Below, in pieces: positions 3,466-54,122 of a stretch of DNA of 54,122 nucleotides (the first letter of the stretch is position 1; each line of letters starts with the position of its first letter). Both the position numbers and the translations under genes were made by a program. The stretch comes from a virus. Lineage: Duplodnaviria; Caudoviricetes. The notes under the pieces were generated by a model, which worked only from the letters and a program-made list of their open reading frames with translations, was not told the origin of the DNA and ran no database searches. The stretch spans positions 1 to 54,122 of IMG/VR virus record IMGVR_UViG_3300036830_000174; one strand, given 5' to 3'.

Positions 3466-3733
3466 GCAACTCGGCATGGTGGACGACGCGCTGCTGGACG
3501 ACGTCGATCGCCGCGCGCTGGGACTCGGGCAGACGCGTCGCACTTTCGTTGAACGGGCCCTCGAGCGCCATATAGAATATGTCGATGAGGTGAGTCAGAC
3601 GCATCGTGGCGTAGATGCCACCGTCGCGGTGGCCGAGCACCGCGCGGCGCTGCGGCCGGCCTCGGCGATCACGCCCTCGAACGCCGCGAAGGCTGGCGTG
3701 CGACCACGACCTCGAGGAGGCAGGAAGCGATGA
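3455..3733 (+). CDS. Ribbon-helix-helix (CopG-like) DNA-binding protein
   Basis: MARKQLGMVDDALLDDVDRRA..GQTRRTFVERALE pattern. Confidence 0.65.
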   Translation: MARKQLGMVDDALLDDVDRRALGLGQTRRTFVERALERHIEYVDEVSQTHRGVDATVAVAEHRAALRPASAITPSNAAKAGVRPRPRGGRKR

Positions 3734-6234: not shown

Positions 6235-6275
6235 AAAAACCACTGGAAAGAAAGTTGCCAGTTGCTTTCCAGTGG
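6235..6275 (-). terminator. 11-bp perfect inverted repeat with T-tract on minus strand
   Basis: CCACTGGAAAG (6240-6250) / CTTTCCAGTGG (6265-6275); AAAAA at 6235-6239. Confidence 0.55.
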
Positions 6276-6310
6276 GGCTTGCGCGTCGGCGCGCTGGTAC
6301 GCTCCGCGCC

Positions 6311-6463
6311 ATGCCGTTCGAGTACGAGCCCACCGAATACGTGCCGCAACCCGAGAAGGTCTACCGCGGCTGGTACGGCGACTCGGCGCAGACGAAGATC
6401 TGCTGGTCGCAGAGACGCAAAGGCTTCCGCGCCGTCTTCCCCGACTGCAAGACGCTCGGCTAG
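6311..6463 (+). CDS. Hypothetical protein (leaderless)
   Basis: TGGTACGCT extended -10 (6295-6303), 7 nt before ATG. Confidence 0.6.
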   Translation: MPFEYEPTEYVPQPEKVYRGWYGDSAQTKICWSQRRKGFRAVFPDCKTLG

Positions 6464-7995: not shown

Positions 7996-8033
7996 TGGTA
8001 CGCTCCTCCGCGTTACCCGATCCAACCTAGGAG
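7996..8033 (+). promoter_or_regulatory. Extended -10 promoter + GTTACCCGATCC leader tag + RBS (copy 2)
   Basis: TGGTACGCT 7996-8004, 7 nt, tag 8012-8023, AGGAG 8029-8033. Confidence 0.75.
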
Positions 8034-8043
8034 ACGATTGAAT

Positions 8044-8898
8044 ATGCCGGTAAAGACGCCCCCCCCCGTAAGGTCAGATGACGGCTGGTCAGTCCCGAGC
8101 CTGCGCGAGCCGCGTTACTCGCAGTCGCTCGAGCGTGGCCTCGCCATTCTCAGTTGCTTTACGCCCAAGCGGCCAGTGCTGGGCATCGCCGACATCGCCG
8201 ACGAGCTCGGCATGAGCCGCTCGACGACGCATCGCTACGTGATCACGCTGCTCGCGCTCGGCTACCTCGAGCAGGGCGCCTCGCGCAAGTACCGGCTTGG
8301 CCTCAAGGTGACGGACCTCGGCATGTCGGCACTGAACGCGACCGGCCTGCGCGAGCACGCCGACCCGCATCTCGAGGAGCTTCGCCGGCGCACGTCCTAC
8401 ACGGTCGGCATCGGTGTGCTGGAGGGACACGACCTGCTCGTCGTCCACCAGGCCGCGAGCTTCCGCCGCGGGATCAACTCGTCGCTGCGCACGGGCTCGC
8501 GCGCGCCGGCCTACGCCACCGCCGGCGGCAAGATGCTGATGGCGCATCTGCCCGACCATGAGCGCGCCGAGATGCTGCGCGCGATGAAGCCGAAGCGCCA
8601 CGGCCCGAACACGATCCTCGGCAAGAAATCACTCGCCGACGAGCTCGACGGGCTGCGCGACGAGAGCGTCGCCGTGGACGACGAAGAGCACGCCGAGGGC
8701 GTCCTGATGCTCGCCGCGCCGGTGCGCAACGAGGCGCGCGTCGTGGTCGCGGCGATCGACGTCGTCGTGCCGTCCTCGGCGATGAGCGTCGGCAGCCTCG
8801 TGGACGCGCTGGGCCCGCACGTGATCGCGACCGCCGACAACGTCTCGGCTCGGCTCGGCTTCCGCCGTGACGACGAGACAGCCGAGACGTCCGCATGA
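8044..8898 (+). CDS. IclR-family transcriptional regulator (PcaR/PobR-like)
   Basis: SQSLERGLAIL HTH, GMSRSTTHRY..TL..LGYL, G.RAPAYATAGGK, DEEH.EGV..LAAPVR effector domain. Confidence 0.92.
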   Translation: MPVKTPPPVRSDDGWSVPSLREPRYSQSLERGLAILSCFTPKRPVLGIADIADELGMSRSTTHRYVITLLALGYLEQGASRKYRLGLKVTDLGMSALNATGLREHADPHLEELRRRTSYTVGIGVLEGHDLLVVHQAASFRRGINSSLRTGSRAPAYATAGGKMLMAHLPDHERAEMLRAMKPKRHGPNTILGKKSLADELDGLRDESVAVDDEEHAEGVLMLAAPVRNEARVVVAAIDVVVPSSAMSVGSLVDALGPHVIATADNVSARLGFRRDDETAETSA

Positions 8899-30000: not shown

Positions 30001-30363
30001 GTGGTCTTCGACTACGAGGCGGCGTGGAGCGATCTTCTCCACCTTCTCGCCTCCGATCCCCGTCCGAACTGGTCAGCGCGCCAGTTGCGCGATCACATGG
30101 GGCTCATCCTCGACCGGCGGCGCGTCAACGAGGCGGCGCTACCCGGTCTACTGCGCCTGCACGGCGTGCAGCTCGACACTCACTTGCAGGTCCAACCGGG
30201 CGATGCGTCCCCCACTCCACCGGCGATCGGACATGCCGGCGCGACGGTCTCGGGCGATCGTTCCCAAACGATGACACCAGGAGGTAGTCACGATGGCGGA
30301 GAGCGAGAAGGACACGCAGGCCAGGATCGCGGAGGCGCACGCGCGCCCCGCGTCGTCGCCTAG
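30001..30363 (+). CDS. Hypothetical protein
   Basis: Fills tube-chaperone gap; overlaps next gene by 71 nt. Confidence 0.4.
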   Translation: MVFDYEAAWSDLLHLLASDPRPNWSARQLRDHMGLILDRRRVNEAALPGLLRLHGVQLDTHLQVQPGDASPTPPAIGHAGATVSGDRSQTMTPGGSHDGGEREGHAGQDRGGARAPRVVA

Positions 30364-41144: not shown

Positions 41145-42512
41145 GTGCCCTTCTACCGGGACCTGCACGCCAAAGTAAAGTTCCCCGCCGACTACTCACG
41201 GGCGCTCGAGCAGTTCATCGGCCTGTTCTCGAACCTCGTCATTCACCAGGTCAGCGCGACCGTGATCGGCGTCGCCGCCGGTGCCAACAACGCGCAGGTC
41301 TCGCTCGGCATCGAAGGGCTCTGGCGGTGGAACAACGCCGAAGTCCAGGCCACGCATCCCGGCGGTGCCGCGGGCTCCTACGACATCGTCGCCACGACGA
41401 CCGCCAACGCGTTCACGACTGGGACCGAAGAAGAGGAAGACCACACGAGCTACAACTGGGCGCTGCAAATCGTGCCGACGGGGACGATCCCCTCCGGCGG
41501 CGGCATCGCGGCCACGCGCAAGCTCGGCACCCTCACATGGTCGGGCACGGCCATCACGAAGATCGAATCGGAAGTGCCCGCGCTGCCGCTGCACGCCGGT
41601 AAGCACGCGACGGGCGGTAGCGACCCGATCACTCCGGCGTCGATCAGTGCAGCAACGGCCACTCAGGCGACCGCGCTCGAAGCGGCCTACGAAGACAACG
41701 GCGCGAACGCCACCGGCATCTACCGCAACTCCGATTTCAGCTTCTCCCCGACGATCAACTCGGCGACGGGGGAACTCATCGCGGCGTCGGTTTCGGGCAA
41801 CGCGAAGATAAGCGGGGTTCGCACGCACACGGGCGTCCCGATCACGCTCGGTCTCATCCCACCGTCGCTGCCCGCCGCCAGCCAGTTTATGAGCGTGCTG
41901 ATTCAAGCGGCGGCGGCCAACGGCTTTGGCAACGCGGCCGTTCTCAGTCTCCTTTCCGGCGTCGCGAAGGCGACCGAAGCCGAAGCTCTCGCCGCACCTG
42001 CCGCTCCGTCCGCGAAAAACATGCGGATCAAAGAGGTCATCATCAAGAACACGGCGGGCGTCTACTCGATCGTCGCGACGCGTGATCGCCGTCCGTGGGC
42101 GCGCGGCTACTACAACTCTCAGAACACCTTTAGCATCACGAGCGTCAAAACGACGGCGTTCGTGCCTCTCTACCAGCAGCGCGCGGAGACCGGGCAGCCG
42201 CTCGTCGTCCGCGCGAATATTCCGGGGGAAAGTGGCAGCGGGGGCGACGAACTCACGCTGCGCGTCAGCGTCAACGGCTCCGTCGTCTCAGGCTCAACGC
42301 GCAAGTACGTGTTTGGGGTCTCGAGCAGGGCGGTCATCGCGTACGAGGCGCTCATCGCGACCACGGGAAGCCAGCTGATCGTGCTCGAAGGCGCGCTCGC
42401 CACAGAAGGCGCGGGACACCAGGTCAGCTTCTTCGCCAACTTCTTCGGCGAAGGCTTCGCTCAGATGATCGAGTGGGCGACGAACGAAGCCAGCTCGAAC
42501 GGCACGACCTAG
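41145..42512 (+). CDS. Tail fibre protein
   Basis: Follows baseplate; HAGKHATGGSDPITPASI fibre repeat. Confidence 0.75.
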   Translation: MPFYRDLHAKVKFPADYSRALEQFIGLFSNLVIHQVSATVIGVAAGANNAQVSLGIEGLWRWNNAEVQATHPGGAAGSYDIVATTTANAFTTGTEEEEDHTSYNWALQIVPTGTIPSGGGIAATRKLGTLTWSGTAITKIESEVPALPLHAGKHATGGSDPITPASISAATATQATALEAAYEDNGANATGIYRNSDFSFSPTINSATGELIAASVSGNAKISGVRTHTGVPITLGLIPPSLPAASQFMSVLIQAAAANGFGNAAVLSLLSGVAKATEAEALAAPAAPSAKNMRIKEVIIKNTAGVYSIVATRDRRPWARGYYNSQNTFSITSVKTTAFVPLYQQRAETGQPLVVRANIPGESGSGGDELTLRVSVNGSVVSGSTRKYVFGVSSRAVIAYEALIATTGSQLIVLEGALATEGAGHQVSFFANFFGEGFAQMIEWATNEASSNGTT

Positions 42513-42850
42513 CCGGGCACGACGACTTCTTCGACGACGTCGGCCGGTTCGCCTTCGGCACTGAGCGCTTCCAGTTCTGCCAGCGTGAGCACGGGCTGCG
42601 GTTCGCTGCCGTCCGTGTCGAACGGGACTTCGGCTTCCGGGGCGGCCGCCGCGGTCACGGCGCCGGTCACGGGCTGCGCGCGGCTGCTGACCGAGTTCGG
42701 CGACGTCGCGCTCGAGCGCCGGTGCGCCGAACGGCGGCAGGCGTGCCGGTGGTGGTGGCAGCGGTGGTGCGCCGGCGCGGCGAGCGCAACGGGGGCGCTG
42801 ACCATGAGCGCCAGGAGCGCGAGGACAATCGGTGCGGTGTAGCGGGGCAT
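42509..42850 (-). CDS. Secreted hypothetical protein (signal peptide, His/Arg-rich then acidic)
   Basis: GGAGG RBS; A-x-A signal peptide; own tagged promoter. Confidence 0.7.
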   Translation of the reverse strand: MPRYTAPIVLALLALMVSAPVALAAPAHHRCHHHRHACRRSAHRRSSATSPNSVSSRAQPVTGAVTAAAAPEAEVPFDTDGSEPQPVLTLAELEALSAEGEPADVVEEVVVPG

Positions 42851-42856
42851 CTACGG

Positions 42857-42893
42857 CCTCCTCGAGGATCGGGTAACGCCGCGAAGCGTATCA
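42857..42893 (-). promoter_or_regulatory. Extended -10 promoter + GTTACCCGATCC leader tag + RBS (copy 3)
   Basis: TGATACGCT (42893-42885), 7 nt, tag 42877-42866, GGAGG 42861-42857. Confidence 0.75.
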
Positions 42894-45765: not shown

Positions 45766-46227
45766 GTGGCGAACGTCCGCGTCATCAACTGGCTCGCCAG
45801 TTTCTCGGCTGGCCTGCGTCTACCAACTGGTGCGGGTGCCGGCAAGATCGCGGTCTCGGATGCGTCCGGGAACATCTCATGGGGCGAAGGTCCGACGTGG
45901 GAAAACATCACCGAACTAAACGCTGGTCTCTCGGCACTGAGCGTACTTACGTGGAGCACGTTGCAGGCTGGCGCTCTTGCTGGTATCGGCTATCTCTCTG
46001 GTGCGCTGGAAGTCAAATCCGAAGTCGCAGTGAAAGCCAAACTGTTCCTACTGCCGGCCATCGCCCGGCCGGAAAAACAGCAGGGCATTCTTCTGAGCAA
46101 CTTCGGCAACGCCGCCAACTACAGCGCACTCATAAAGACAAACGGCGAAGTCATACTCGAACAGACGCCTATAAAACTCGCTGGGACTCCCGTTGTGCTG
46201 AACAATCATTACCGACTAAAGGGGTAG
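45766..46227 (+). CDS. Fibre-tip/receptor-binding-like protein
   Basis: PTGAGAGK..VSDASGN.SW; LF.LP..ARP; lower GC. Confidence 0.65.
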   Translation: MANVRVINWLASFSAGLRLPTGAGAGKIAVSDASGNISWGEGPTWENITELNAGLSALSVLTWSTLQAGALAGIGYLSGALEVKSEVAVKAKLFLLPAIARPEKQQGILLSNFGNAANYSALIKTNGEVILEQTPIKLAGTPVVLNNHYRLKG

Positions 46228-46230
46228 GCA

Positions 46231-46497
46231 ATGAAGTCTTATCGCATAGAACGAGTAACCGAAGAAGTCACGATCGAAGGGGAGGACGGCTGGTTGCCGA
46301 AGTCGTGGGCAGAACCAGGCGGACGCTTCGAGGATTCGACGATCACCGCCGAACGATTCGGGTGCCCGTCGCCGGAAACGGCCGTCATCGTGCAGGCAGA
46401 AAGCCCAGAGGACGCGATCACGCTGATGGAAGGACAGCCCGGCAGCCCTGCAAATGAAGGAGGACCGTTCGCCGCCTCGGAGGTCACGGTCAAATAG
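46231..46497 (+). CDS. Hypothetical acidic protein
   Basis: Clean ORF, lower GC. Confidence 0.55.
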   Translation: MKSYRIERVTEEVTIEGEDGWLPKSWAEPGGRFEDSTITAERFGCPSPETAVIVQAESPEDAITLMEGQPGSPANEGGPFAASEVTVK

Positions 46498-46553
46498 CGT
46501 CCTAGCGTCTGCGTAGCGTGCCGAGCATCAATCCCCGTATAAGGAGGCACCCC

Positions 46554-47060
46554 GTGACCTACTCGTTGTCGTTCGCACCGCTCGTCCGCCTTGCGGCCTT
46601 CGCGGTTGCGCTCTGGCGTCTGCTCGTCCCCGTCCTTGAGCGCCGTGTCGTGAGGCTCATCGCCTACGGTGCCGCGTTCGCGCTCGTCCTGCTGCTGCTC
46701 GTGCCGGCGCTCGGCCTCGCCGACCTGCCGGCGAAAGCCACGCCGGGCTTCGTGCTGCCCTACGCGCAGCTATGGGCGCTCGTGGTCGGATTGCTCACGC
46801 CACTGGTCGCCTACGTCGTCAACTCGAAGCTGTGGAAAAACGCGCCGGAACCGTACAAGGCGTTCGTGCAGCTCGCTATCTCAGCCGTCGCCACCGCCAT
46901 CTACACGGCGTGCGCGACGAACGTCATCGGATGGAACGACGCGACGCTGCAGCTGATCCTGACCGGCGTGCTCGGTTCGCTCTCCGCCCACGGCCTGCTC
47001 TGGAAGCCGAGCGGCGTCGCGGCACGACTGCGCGGGGAGACGCCGAAGGCACTCGCCTAA
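46554..47060 (+). CDS. Holin-like multi-pass membrane protein
   Basis: AAGGAGG RBS; about 4 hydrophobic helices; H..LWKPSGVA C-terminus. Confidence 0.7.
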   Translation: MTYSLSFAPLVRLAAFAVALWRLLVPVLERRVVRLIAYGAAFALVLLLLVPALGLADLPAKATPGFVLPYAQLWALVVGLLTPLVAYVVNSKLWKNAPEPYKAFVQLAISAVATAIYTACATNVIGWNDATLQLILTGVLGSLSAHGLLWKPSGVAARLRGETPKALA

Positions 47061-47094
47061 CGGCTTACCGCCGAGGCTCAGGTAGAATCGCCGC

Positions 47095-47188
47095 GACTGC
47101 GTGTTCAATTCGTTCTCCAAGCGAGAGTGGATCGAGTAACAGCTCGCGGTGCAAGACAGCGCCCGCCATGTGCGGGCGCTGTTTCGTT
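47095..47188 (+). ncRNA. Putative trans-acting antisense sRNA
   Basis: CGGCTT-N16-TAGAAT promoter (47061-47088), no credible ORF, terminator; complementary to four tagged mRNA leaders. Confidence 0.7.
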
Positions 47189-47190
47189 CT
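47156..47190 (+). terminator. Intrinsic terminator
   Basis: ACAGCGCCCGC-CATGT-GCGGGCGCTGT followed by TTCGTTCT. Confidence 0.8.
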
Positions 47191-47203
47191 CCGCCGGTGT
47201 GTG

Positions 47204-47236
47204 TACGATGACTCCGTTACCCGATCTACTTGGAGG
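47204..47236 (+). promoter_or_regulatory. -10 promoter + GTTACCCGATC leader tag + RBS (copy 4)
   Basis: TACGAT 47204-47209, 6 nt, tag 47216-47226, GGAGG 47232-47236. Confidence 0.75.
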
Positions 47237-47238
47237 CC

Positions 47239-48375
47239 ATGATGAGCACGCCGAGCACCGCCGTAGACCGTCCCGCTGAGCGTCCGCCGGCGCTCCCCGC
47301 CGCGATGCCGCCCGGCGCGATGGGCGAAGACGTCATCAACGAACTGTGGCGCCAGGCGAAGGCACTCGCCGTCGGCGGCATGTTCAAGGGCGTCACGCAG
47401 GCCGAGCAGGCGTTCGCGAAGATGGTCGTCGGACATCATCTCGGCCTGAACCCGTCGCAGTCGATGATGGGCATTGACATCGTCGAGGGCAACGCGCAAC
47501 TGCGCGGCGTGCTGATGGGGACGCTCGTGCGCGAACGCGACGGCTACGACTGGAAAGTCCTCGAGTTCACGAACGAGAAATGCCAGATCGAGTTCTTCCG
47601 CAACGGCGAGTCGCAGGGCGTCTCCGAATGGAACGAGGCGGACAGCCAGCGCGCCGAACTCAACAAGGACCGCTCGAACCACAAGAAATATCCCCGCGCG
47701 ATGTACTGGAATCGCGCGATGAGCCAGGGCGTGAAGCTGCTCGTGCCCGAGACGATGCGCGGCATACCCGTCTACGTGGCCGAGGACTTCGAGGCCGGCG
47801 GCGCGCGCGACGGCGAGGTCGGCGGCTCTGGCGCTCTGCCGGCGGCGACCGACGCCGAACTCGAGAAGGCCGTCCGCGACTATCTACCCGAGGCGCACGT
47901 CGATGAGGCGCTCGCGCTGATGCTCGAGATGAACGCCGTCGCGGCGAACTCCTGGACGACGGCGAAGGTGCAGATGGTCTTCTCCGGCAAGGAGAGCGAG
48001 CGCGCGATCAAGCGCGAGTTCGAGATGATCCGTCGCGCGATCGATGAGATTGCCGAGCGCCGGCGCGTCACCGGCGACCCGGTGCCTGCGGCAGATGCTG
48101 AGGCCGAGTCGGAGGACGTCGTCGATGCGGTGGTCGTGCCCGAGGCTGGCGGCGAGGACGCCGAGCCCGTCGCCGCGGCCGCGGCAGACGCTCCGTCCGA
48201 GGATGAACTCAAGGAAGCCGAGCGCGTGCGCGTGCGTCGCGTCGAGCACCTGCAGCAGTCGCTCGAGAACCCCGAGGTGAATGAGCAGCAGCGCAGCGAC
48301 ATCGAGGCCGAGCTCGACCTGCTGACGAGCGATCCGCCCGAGTCTGCCGCCGGCGAGGACGACATCAAGTTCTAG
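47239..48375 (+). CDS. RecT/Bet-like single-strand annealing protein
   Basis: G..LGLNP.QSM..I.IVEG, D..RA.L, KKYP.AM..NRA.SQ, Y..E motifs. Confidence 0.8.
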   Translation: MMSTPSTAVDRPAERPPALPAAMPPGAMGEDVINELWRQAKALAVGGMFKGVTQAEQAFAKMVVGHHLGLNPSQSMMGIDIVEGNAQLRGVLMGTLVRERDGYDWKVLEFTNEKCQIEFFRNGESQGVSEWNEADSQRAELNKDRSNHKKYPRAMYWNRAMSQGVKLLVPETMRGIPVYVAEDFEAGGARDGEVGGSGALPAATDAELEKAVRDYLPEAHVDEALALMLEMNAVAANSWTTAKVQMVFSGKESERAIKREFEMIRRAIDEIAERRRVTGDPVPAADAEAESEDVVDAVVVPEAGGEDAEPVAAAAADAPSEDELKEAERVRVRRVEHLQQSLENPEVNEQQRSDIEAELDLLTSDPPESAAGEDDIKF

Positions 48376-48385
48376 GCTCGCGACC

Positions 48386-49612
48386 GTGAGCGCAACGGGA
48401 CTCGTCCGTGCCGTACCCGAGCGGCCTATGTCGCTCGATGAGGTGCGCGAGCGCTGGCCGACGCTGAGGCAGTCGAACCTCTCGCTGTTCGACGACTGTG
48501 AACTGGCGTCGTACTTCGGCATCAAATTCGAGAACGGCTGGTCAACGCACCCGCAGGCGGCCGGGACGATCGTGCACCGGGCGATCGCCGAGTGCCTGCG
48601 CGAGATGCAGAGCAACGACTCCGAGACGATCCCGGTCAGCGTCGCGTTGGCGATCCTCGAAGAGACGCTGCGCCAGCGCGACGTCGCGCCCGAGGATCGC
48701 GTCCGCGTGCCGCGCCGGGAGTTGCCGAACATCGAAATGGCGGTGCGGAAGTTCGCGAAGGACAACGAATTCGCGATCCGCAACCTGATCGACGTCGAGC
48801 GCCGCCTCGAGGCCACGGTGAGCTACCGCGACGGCGAGACCGGCGAACTCGTTGAGCGCGTGGTCAGCGGCCAGCTCGACACGCTGATCGCGCGGCCGCC
48901 CGACGAGGCCGTTGTGCTCGACTGGAAGGCGACGTGGGCGCTGCCGCCAGAGCACGACGAGGACGACGAGAAGCCCGGCCTGTCCTATCACGGCTTCTTC
49001 CAGCAGCGCCTCTACGCCGTGCTCGTCATGCAGAACTTCCCGGCGGTCAACGCCGTGGTGCTGCGCGAGTTCTACGTGCGGCGCACGAAAGCGCGGCCAG
49101 CACGTATCACGCGACAGGACCTACCGAAAACCGAACGCTGGCTCGCCGAAGTCGTCGAGGACTTCGACTCGGCGATGCGCAGCGGGCCCCCGCCGCGCCT
49201 GCGCACGGAGGACCTTGAGCGCCACGGCTACTGGAAGCCCTCGCCCGGCAAGCACTGTTTCAACTGCCACAAGGCGCACCTATGCCCGATAGACGACGAC
49301 TACAAGGACGGCGGCATCCGCACGCCCGAGCGGGCGCAGGCCGCCGCCGGCGCGCGGCAGAAGGCGCGCGCGATCATCAAACGCCTGGACGAATGGCTCA
49401 AGCCGTGGGCCGAGCTCCACGGGCCGATCCCGCTCAGAGACTCCAAGGGACGGCGCGTGCTGGGCCATCGCAAGATCAAGGGCGGCCAGCGCTTCGAGGA
49501 ATACACGCCCGAGACGGCTGATCGTCCGGGCGACCAGGAGGCGTACGCTCCGAACCTCGTGGACGCGATGAAAGAGTCAGTCGATCAAGCTCGCCGAGAG
49601 CGTGCGGTGTAA
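48386..49612 (+). CDS. PD-(D/E)XK exonuclease (RecB/Cas4-like, Fe-S cysteines)
   Basis: GTIVHRAI, G.LD, VLDWKA, Q..LYA, P.PG.HCFNC....C. Confidence 0.85.
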   Translation: MSATGLVRAVPERPMSLDEVRERWPTLRQSNLSLFDDCELASYFGIKFENGWSTHPQAAGTIVHRAIAECLREMQSNDSETIPVSVALAILEETLRQRDVAPEDRVRVPRRELPNIEMAVRKFAKDNEFAIRNLIDVERRLEATVSYRDGETGELVERVVSGQLDTLIARPPDEAVVLDWKATWALPPEHDEDDEKPGLSYHGFFQQRLYAVLVMQNFPAVNAVVLREFYVRRTKARPARITRQDLPKTERWLAEVVEDFDSAMRSGPPPRLRTEDLERHGYWKPSPGKHCFNCHKAHLCPIDDDYKDGGIRTPERAQAAAGARQKARAIIKRLDEWLKPWAELHGPIPLRDSKGRRVLGHRKIKGGQRFEEYTPETADRPGDQEAYAPNLVDAMKESVDQARRERAV

Positions 49613-54058: not shown

Positions 54059-54111
54059 ATTCACGACTATTCACGAACAAGGTGGTAAACGGCTGACCAC
54101 CGTGCTATCGT
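54059..54111 (+). promoter_or_regulatory. Direct repeats + palindrome + extended -10 at window end
   Basis: ATTCACGA x2 (54059, 54069), AGGTGGTAAAC-G-GCTGACCACCG (54080-54102), TGCTATCGT (54103-54111). Confidence 0.5.
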
Positions 54112-54122
54112 CCGCGATCTTG

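Follow-up and report, generated by a model that had tools for sequence, protein, structure and literature searches.

A candidate antisense RNA element complementary to the leaders of recT and a distant IclR gene in a high-GC phage genome

Results

IMG/VR virus record IMGVR_UViG_3300036830_000174, from a soil phage (Duplodnaviria; Caudoviricetes), comprises 54,122 bases of 68% G+C, is estimated to be 66% complete, and was analyzed over its whole length, hereafter the window, in which nearly all genes lie on the + strand. This study concerns a noncoding element, a candidate antisense RNA on the + strand, located in the gap between a gene for a 180-amino-acid (aa) protein (46518-47060) and the early recombination/replication operon. 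From recT on, this operon encodes a RecT-like protein (phrog_4171), a PD-(D/E)XK exonuclease, an IstB/DnaC-like ATPase, and RusA; the name recT, given in an earlier sequence-only reading of this DNA, was confirmed by the phrog_4171 match, and the exonuclease assignment was confirmed as well. The 180-aa product looks hydrophobic and matched no family, and protein family searches gave no backing to its earlier designation as a holin.

The element is defined by an inverted copy of a short repeat that otherwise occurs in mRNA leaders. This 12-base leader tag, GTTACCCGATCC, has perfect copies at 2129+, 8012+, and 42866-; the copies at 47216+ (the recT leader) and 47129- each carry one mismatch, and the latter is read on the + strand as an anti-tag. 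Five sites at ≤1 mismatch compare with 0.08 expected, and none of 100 shuffles reached five. The four sense tags precede gene 2154, an IclR gene (8044), gene 42850 on the - strand, and recT, and each lies 6 to 7 nucleotides (nt) past a TANNNT hexamer, which in three cases forms a full extended -10, TGNTANNNT. This 9-mer occurs 5 times in the window (10.5 expected), and 3 of the 5 are the tagged promoters. In each leader, the tag is followed by 3 to 6 nt, GGAG, and the start codon, with 14 to 20 nt from tag end to start codon; the tag is separate from the Shine-Dalgarno (SD) sequence and is not palindromic.

Within the gap, a -10-like hexamer, TAGAAT (47083-47088, + strand), is the candidate promoter of the antisense RNA, on the grounds of its rarity and of the same spacing in a distant relative, G403. 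Only two TANNNT hexamers occur on the + strand of 47000-47215, namely TAGAAT and recT's own -10, at a genome frequency of 0.00105 per base, and L006, a close relative, and the X2 and X5 variants all keep TAGAAT intact. The sequence-only reading had proposed a complete promoter, CGGCTT-N16-TAGAAT. That string is present at 47061-47088 and the rare -10 stands, but the -35 does not: CGGCTT-N14-18-TANNNT appeared in 37 of 100 shuffles, no more than chance, CGGCTT is unlike a sigma-70 -35, and close relatives delete 3 bases between it and TAGAAT. The argument that this promoter belongs to a late class rests on the -35 and is likewise unsupported.

By the rule of -10 plus 7 nt, transcription from TAGAAT is predicted to yield an RNA of about 95 nt (47096-47190, + strand). 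The fold of 47095-47190 (-44.1 kcal/mol; z, -3.9) includes a terminator-like hairpin at 47154-47184 on the + strand, with a 13-bp GC-rich stem and a 5-nt loop, followed by UUCGUUCU in a U-rich tail that reaches 47190. The strong terminator claimed earlier is seen as a hairpin, with the stem and UUUCGUUCU both present in the fold, but a consensus scan of 46400-47600 called no terminator, and the hairpin in G403 is without a U tract. Three + strand blocks make up the 5' part (together, the anti-leader). A block at 47099-47113 is complementary to the start-codon regions of recT (47239-47251) and IclR (8034-8048), including both AUGs. An anti-SD, UCUCCA (47114-47119), pairs with recT GGAGG (47232-47236) plus U47231 and with IclR GGAG (8030-8033); its core, TCTCC at 47114-47118, was correctly placed in the sequence-only reading. 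The anti-tag, GGATCGAGTAAC (47129-47140), departs from an exact reverse complement of the tag at a single A-C mismatch, as had been noted.

As had been suggested for about 95 nt of this gap, no open reading frame (ORF) in 47061-47215 passed a filter on G+C at third codon positions (GC3), and neither strand of the segment contains a credible ORF. A - strand ORF of 79 aa (46881-47120), antisense to the upstream gene, was rejected: it failed the GC3 filter, it has no counterpart start in G403, and both of its candidate TTG starts are altered in a natural variant. An Rfam search, proposed earlier as a check, returned no match at the gathering score over the whole window and none at E values up to 1 in 46950-47300. 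The - strand of this segment, from 47140 to 47099, runs through the tag, a spacer, GGAGA, 6 nt, and TTG, and it aligns with the IclR and recT leaders; a + strand RNA would thus be antisense to a whole leader, beyond the tag alone. In neither the window phage nor G403 is there a - strand TANNNT rightward of the inverted tag, and no start codon follows the - strand SD of G403, which argues that the element is not the leader of a leftward gene.

Cofolding and folding reproduced the recT pairing proposed earlier and also the IclR pairing of GCGUGUUCAAU with AUUGAAUAUGC, which includes two G-U pairs. For recT, 33 predicted pairs join 47099-47140 to 47216-47251, and for IclR, 35 join 47096-47140 to 8012-8051, covering the SD and AUG in both cases. 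When the duplex was restricted to the flank 5' of the anti-tag, shuffles were as good 2 times per 1000 for recT and for IclR, 64 times for gene 2154, and 612 times for gene 42850. When the anti-tag was kept and only its flanks were shuffled, the corresponding counts per 200 were 25 (recT), 9 (IclR), 145 (gene 2154), and 199 (gene 42850). Complementarity to the ribosome binding site region exceeds chance for recT and IclR and fails to do so for the other two genes: the pairing described earlier for gene 2154 is not clearly above shuffled flanks, and that for gene 42850 is at chance level. Of the master switch with four targets that had been envisaged, extended complementarity thus survives for recT and IclR, whereas genes 2154 and 42850 show none beyond the tag that exceeds shuffled controls. 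Similarly, G-U compatibility had been taken as a sign of RNA pairing; G-U pairs do occur in the flanks, but the A-C in the tag center is not G-U compatible.

Among 67 start regions, taken from the gene starts of a crude in-house caller, cofold binding ranked recT 1st, IclR 2nd, gene 2154 5th, and gene 42850 8th, and a rank sum as low occurs in 27 of 766,480 four-gene sets. On a genome-wide grid of 2704 + strand windows, the IclR leader came 1st (-22.6 kcal/mol), that of gene 2154 4th (-17.9; rank counted in a collapsed list), and that of recT 7th. All four leaders had been expected to rank at the top, but that of gene 42850 (-7.4), a weak predicted partner, came 388th of 2704 - strand windows. 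The anti-leader also matches IclR-specific bases (CGA-TTGAA) that recT lacks, which goes beyond the need of a purely cis role. One untagged gene start in the structural region (30293-30330) bound the 5' part of the RNA at -20.0 kcal/mol, 3rd of 67 and about like the tagged leaders; this match may be due to chance or mark a further target.

Upstream of recT in G403 (L274), whose RecT is 52% identical and whose record (56% complete, with the window at 66%) contains tblastn matches to only 4 window proteins, the order is TATGCT, 27 nt, GTCTCCTC, 8 nt, CCGGTAAC, a hairpin, TGGTAGCGT plus 7 nt, the tag GTTACCGGAACC, GAGGAGAC, and ATG. From the -10 to CTCC is 27 nt in G403 (TATGCT) and 26 nt in the window (TAGAAT), so that the hexamer keeps the same distance to the element in both phages, at TANNNT frequencies of 0.00105 and 0.0019 per base. 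The tag and its complement have changed together: position 7 of the tag is C in the window and G in G403, the paired anti-tag base is G and C, respectively, and the G403 anti-tag CCGGTAAC matches its own tag, GTTACCGG. The SD flanks also match within each phage and differ between them (CTTGGAG/CTCCAAG in the window versus GAGGAGAC/GTCTCCTC in G403), with GTCTCCTC a perfect 8-mer anti-SD to GAGGAGAC. An exact 8-mer to the tag and an exact 8-mer to the rest of the leader arose jointly in 2 of 5000 shuffles of G403. Two further G403 promoters carry the same tag allele, the tag copies being 12/12, 12/12, and 11/12 alike, and the inverted copy retains 8 of 12 tag bases versus 11 to 12 of 12 in the promoter copies, such that the full site is not conserved. 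Since the genes upstream of the G403 element point leftward, the element is not merely a late 3' untranslated region and travels with the recT promoter.

L006 is about 94% identical to the window across the 8 kb that the two have in common and 98% identical between the flanking genes, and it is therefore little informative. In a natural variant represented by X3 and X5, contigs from two runs of two studies of soil metagenomes, 8 substitutions and 3 insertions fall in 47107-47140. Among them, 47135 A>G creates a perfect 12-base anti-tag, and 47107 A>G keeps the recT and IclR pairs as G-U (read by hand); CTCC is kept, and the spacer 47119-47128 is rewritten. Nothing is changed in 47141-47210, and the hairpin and recT leader are intact. 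The record of step-wise change consists of one compensatory pair in an 8-bp helix, matched SD flanks, and this repair, over only two tag alleles. When the window was aligned with G403 by MAFFT and RNAalifold, the terminator fell opposite the anti-leader, and these misalignments were not used.

Two other relatives, G404 and G405, have syntenic structural genes (25 to 43% identity to the window in G405) and related promoters, and no convincing anti-leader was found in them. Promoters of G405, a third lineage, share the first eight bases of the tag, GT(T/A)ACCCG. At least 5 promoters of G405 (L365-L368) share TGWTACCTT-TGGTMGC and then GYAAC..., and four of them continue GYAACCC. Two features of G405 were set aside after inspection: a direct repeat upstream of recT and, at G405rc 48193, an inverted GCAACCCG. 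RecT homologues of 46 to 67% identity (P0002, P0004, and P0006-P0016) are encoded on contigs of up to 73 kb. A megablast search of 46000-49000 against a phage collection gave no match, tblastn of RecT against the same collection gave only 2 distant matches, and a single-protein scan of viral contigs found none. Scans of viral and metagenome contigs for the tag plus GGAG pattern yielded, among the matches listed, none that aligned to the window by blastn except L006 and L007, both recovered by the RecT scan; the pattern-scan matches themselves are due to chance. A 20-base conserved string at the recT 5' end found G403 alone. Class and order genome searches turned up RecT homologues inside operons, without the promoter module.

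The promoter-leader region of recT (47204-47241, + strand) comprises a -10, TACGAT, at 47204-47209, the tag at 47216-47227, the SD GGAGG at 47232-47236, and ATG at 47239. That of IclR (7996-8046, + strand) has the extended -10 TGGTACGCT at 7996-8004, the tag at 8012-8023, GGAG at 8030-8033, and ATG at 8044. For gene 2154 (2113-2156, + strand), the extended -10 lies at 2113-2121, the tag at 2129-2140, and GTG at 2154, and for gene 42850 (42848-42893, - strand), the extended -10 lies at 42885-42893, the tag at 42866-42877, and ATG at 42850. A hairpin at 6240-6275 is followed at 6295 by the same extended -10 as that of IclR, with an ATG exactly 7 nt on and no tag, and 6311-6463 is probably a leaderless early gene of the same promoter class. 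This ATG, 7 nt after the -10 (promoter 6295-6311), supports the first G of the tag as +1, so that the tag is predicted to form the extreme 5' end of the tagged mRNAs. A fifth extended -10, TGCTATCGT, lies at 54103-54122, 11 bases from the record end, and its gene is beyond the window.

Close relatives sit on contigs binned with Solirubrobacteraceae and Gaiellaceae metagenome-assembled genomes, which weakly hints at a host among high-GC Actinomycetota (Thermoleophilia). In genomes of this class, the tag occurs in 62 of 401, versus about a dozen (counted by eye) for a reversed control. None of 30 inspected contexts has a -10 and GGAG setting, and all look like ordinary coding DNA; these copies are therefore treated as unrelated, and the tag is not considered a host motif. 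Codon or dinucleotide bias may account for the excess over the control. Pairing of the tag with the 3' end of 16S rRNA was rejected by reasoning from the rRNA sequence, since the order of elements is wrong.

The gene at 8044 was correctly named, as its product carries Pfam HTH_IclR and IclR_C and is the sole regulator among 30 window proteins in the Pfam search. A run of nine C at 8058-8066 in its first codons may be a hot spot for slippage or assembly error. Gene 42850 (42509-42850) is the sole clear - strand gene and lies amid tail genes behind a tagged promoter. Its N terminus looks signal- or membrane-like by eye, and it may be a moron, encoding, for example, a superinfection-exclusion protein. 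The strongest complementarity between an upstream and a start region in the window (-58 kcal/mol) falls at 42640-42780, in or beside this gene, and may be a long inverted repeat or an artefact of a wrong start call. Two further observations concern G403: 23 identical bases are shared at the start of recT coding sequence (47247-47269 and L274 3979-4001) despite 52% RecT identity, as if the regulatory module reached into the first codons or recombination had been recent, and 840 nt without a credible gene (L274 3100-3940), between leftward replication-type genes and recT, contain another TATGCT, at 3518, along with several hairpin-like repeats and may encode more noncoding RNAs.

Discussion

A + strand antisense element directed against tagged leaders, as the sequence-only reading had proposed, best explains this locus. 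The sequence elements are complementary to the recT and IclR leaders, their layout is kept in G403, and matching change is seen both in that distant relative and in a natural variant that perfects the anti-tag. Specifically, we favor an antisense RNA of about 95 nt, c4- or sar-like, that is predicted to act mainly on recT and IclR, and we hold this reading at roughly even confidence in light of the moderate binding in G403 and the middling accessibility of the antisense blocks. The RNA encoded by 47096-47190 would start from TAGAAT and end at the hairpin 47154-47184, and in the window phage, late-operon transcripts stopping at that hairpin would carry the same segment as their 3' end. Its 5' domain of three blocks (anti-tag, anti-SD, and start-codon-region block) could pair with two complete leaders, each from the predicted +1 through the start codon: that of the early recT/exonuclease operon next to the element and that of the IclR gene far away. 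Such pairing would block ribosome loading, and the duplex might be exposed to RNase III. Genes 2154 and 42850, which share only the tag and core SD, would be weak targets at best.

Several observations weigh against such an RNA. No -35 is present, and at the element the consensus scan gave no promoter or terminator call. None of the 9 sequencing runs listed for the region is on record as RNA, and the transcript is a predicted one. An A-C mismatch to each of the four tags of this genome sits at the center of the presumed seed, and the anti-tag and anti-SD are only about 36 to 48% unpaired in predicted ensembles. The rank enrichment among start regions is largely circular because an inverted tag must match tags, and with the anti-tag fixed, shuffled flanks bind genes 2154 and 42850 at least as well in 145 and 199 of the 200 shuffles, and recT in only 25. 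By raw duplex energy, a scan that is uninformative in a 68% GC genome, none of the four leaders was in the genome-wide top 15. Pairing of the recT upstream region with its own start region is unexceptional, falling outside the top 10 of 66 genes by duplex energy and ranking 4th of them by local alignment. Taken by itself, the anti-SD is improbable only to a modest degree, as it arose in 416 and 289 of 5000 shuffles. In G403, the tagged leaders rank 132nd, 403rd, and 2169th of 5494 grid windows, and the exact leaders bind at -9.6, -14.4, and -11.7 against a background of -5.5 (standard deviation, 3.1). Cross-phage controls were at times as good, as for the G403 anti-leader against window gene 42850 (4 of 1000 by flank only; -13.7). 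Finally, co-variation of tag and anti-tag is equally expected for two sites of one DNA-binding protein, and within each phage the tags are 12/12 or 11/12 alike, including positions 9 to 12, which the G403 anti-tag leaves unpaired.

The last two points bear on a protein-based explanation, in which the tag is a site for a phage or host protein on +1 to +12 of early promoters, 47129-47140 is a fifth operator (serving, e.g., as a roadblock or to form a loop with the operator of recT at a distance of 87 bp), and CTCC is coincidental. Placement on +1 is classical for repressors, the tags are near-invariant (3 of 4 exact in the window and 12/12, 12/12, and 11/12 in G403), GT(T/A)ACCCG is common to third-lineage promoters, the natural variant shifts the inverted copy to the exact consensus, and one G403 tag, GTTACCGGAAAC, is a near palindrome (10/12, read by eye). 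The window tag, however, is not palindromic, and in G403 the inverted copy preserves only 8 of the 12 tag bases, against 11 to 12 in the promoter copies. No shared regulator emerged either: the 4 window proteins matching G403 belong to no DNA-binding family, and the G403 record yielded no IclR homologue, with the two records 66% and 56% complete. An operator also gives no role to pairing that reaches into the start-codon regions of recT and IclR (2 of 1000 for each gene), to the anti-SD found at a similar distance in both lineages (joint, 2 of 5000 in G403), or to the -10 and hairpin that frame the element as a transcription unit. A + strand RNA element explains the anti-SD, the start-codon block, the -10/hairpin frame, and the 8-base G403 anti-tag, and a DNA operator explains none of these; we regard the operator reading as unlikely, although tag uniformity and GT(T/A)ACCCG at G405 promoters lend it some weight. 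Another explanation would make the inverted copy a decaying inverted duplication of the promoter-leader cassette, once a divergent leftward promoter and now without function. The - strand order of tag, spacer, GGAGA, 6 nt, and TTG does resemble the other leaders and aligns with those of IclR and recT, the - strand copy has lost its -10, and its spacer evolves fast (the 8 substitutions and 3 insertions in 47107-47140 of the variant). Decay is, however, hard to reconcile with tag and SD blocks that persist in two lineages whose intergenic sequence is otherwise unalignable, that changed in step with each phage's own leader, and that the variant repairs rather than erodes, and we consider a relic highly improbable.

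A role confined to cis would retain RNA pairing. Read-through transcripts, from the late operon or the TAGAAT promoter, would carry both arms, and the anti-leader would hide the recT SD and AUG; recT would then be translated only from transcripts begun at its own promoter. The window itself keeps this model alive, as in the fold of 47095-47260 (-74.6 kcal/mol; z, -4.4; none of 200 shuffles as stable), 47099-47140 and 47216-47251 form a single long helix that encloses the hairpin. Moreover, the anti-leader lies 75 to 100 nt upstream of the recT tag in both lineages, and P1 c4 RNA is likewise placed upstream of its targets in the same operon in the c4 passages of PMC8198154. In the G403 read-through fold, however, neither the minimum free energy structure nor the centroid contains anti-leader/leader pairing, and no + strand operon runs into the element there. 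In the window, the stable hairpin between the arms should end most transcripts ahead of the target, the element matches IclR-specific bases 39 kb away, and the self-complementarity of recT is merely 4th of 66 genes by local alignment. The IclR-specific match, the hairpin between the arms, the leftward G403 genes, and the G403 read-through fold without a long-range helix lead us to favor action in trans and to view a solely cis role as quite improbable.

The antisense reading leaves one feature for another factor. Tag uniformity beyond the need of pairing, together with GT(T/A)ACCCG in G405, implies another reader to account for tag conservation, and the tag is likely also read by a second reader, probably a protein or else RNA polymerase. 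A bolder proposal, which we advance as doubtful, is that each phage tags the 5' ends of its early mRNAs with its own 12-base address and that one recT-side RNA reads the tag and SD to silence the whole early regulon. If so, silencing could serve as lysogen immunity or as an early shut-off from late 3' ends, and allelic tag/anti-tag pairs could underlie RNA-based heteroimmunity among related actinobacteriophages, like that of P1/P7 but at many promoters at once.

Most known phage antisense regulators come from a small number of enterobacterial phages, and a text search of a recent phage small RNA review (PMC12197685) found no word beginning with "actinobacteri." If real, the RNA described here would belong to a high-GC actinobacterial phage, would come from the same strand as its targets while being only partly complementary to them, and would span an mRNA leader between +1 and the start codon. 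It would also be tied to a promoter-leader cassette with a genome-specific tag. Single inverted copies of early-gene repeats in other actinobacteriophages might then also sit in small RNAs. In addition, the tag, anti-tag, and extended -10 cassette could provide compact gene-control parts for Actinomycetota.

The nearest analogue in logic is c4, of the immI operon of P1 and P7. In the c4 passages of PMC12197685 and PMC8198154, c4 is a small phage RNA just upstream of its target and in the same orientation, it pairs through short complementary blocks around the ribosome binding site, and c4 and target differ in step between the heteroimmune phages. The RNA predicted here shares the upstream position, the strand, and the blocks around the ribosome binding site; tag and anti-tag also differ together between the window and G403, a pattern equally expected for a shared DNA site. 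It differs in that the window element has its own -10 and a hairpin before the target, whereas c4 is processed from an operon transcript; in that the target blocks include an extreme-5' tag common to several dispersed promoters; and in its presumed host, a high-GC Actinomycetota bacterium (Thermoleophilia). Rfam includes a C4 family, and the window element has no sequence or structure match in that database. The phage RNAs sar (P22) and OOP (lambda) are transcribed opposite their targets and are hence fully complementary to them. Both are short RNAs that pair with phage mRNA and lower its translation or stability, as summarized in PMC12197685. They are looser parallels, in that the predicted window RNA would be transcribed from the same strand as its targets, would pair through partial blocks, and has a candidate target, IclR, 39 kb off.

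Two repeat systems of mycobacteriophages resemble the tag itself. According to the SAS passages of PMC3203893, the start-associated sequence (SAS/ESAS) of Cluster K mycobacteriophages is a short asymmetric motif found in one orientation before many nonstructural genes, absent or very rare in two host genomes examined, and present as a single opposite-strand copy in several phages; whether an RNA or a protein reads it was left open by its authors. SAS (5'-GGGATAGGAGCCC) contains the SD and lies 3 to 7 bp from the start codon (PMC3203893). The window tag differs in sequence and lacks these hallmarks of a 13-bp motif with AGGAG 3 to 7 bp before the start, being apart from the SD, at the predicted +1, tied to promoters, and present in 3 to 4 forward copies per genome. 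Stoperators of the L5-type Cluster A phages are 12- to 13-bp nonpalindromic repressor sites distributed across the genome and oriented with transcription. They are also mentioned in PMC3203893. The tag likewise forms a set of asymmetric sites, with five near-identical copies in the window and three promoter copies in G403. It departs from the stoperators in that the odd copy in the window is inverted and accompanied by an anti-SD, a -10, and a hairpin, that its G403 counterpart retains 8 of 12 bases, and that no cognate repressor was identified.

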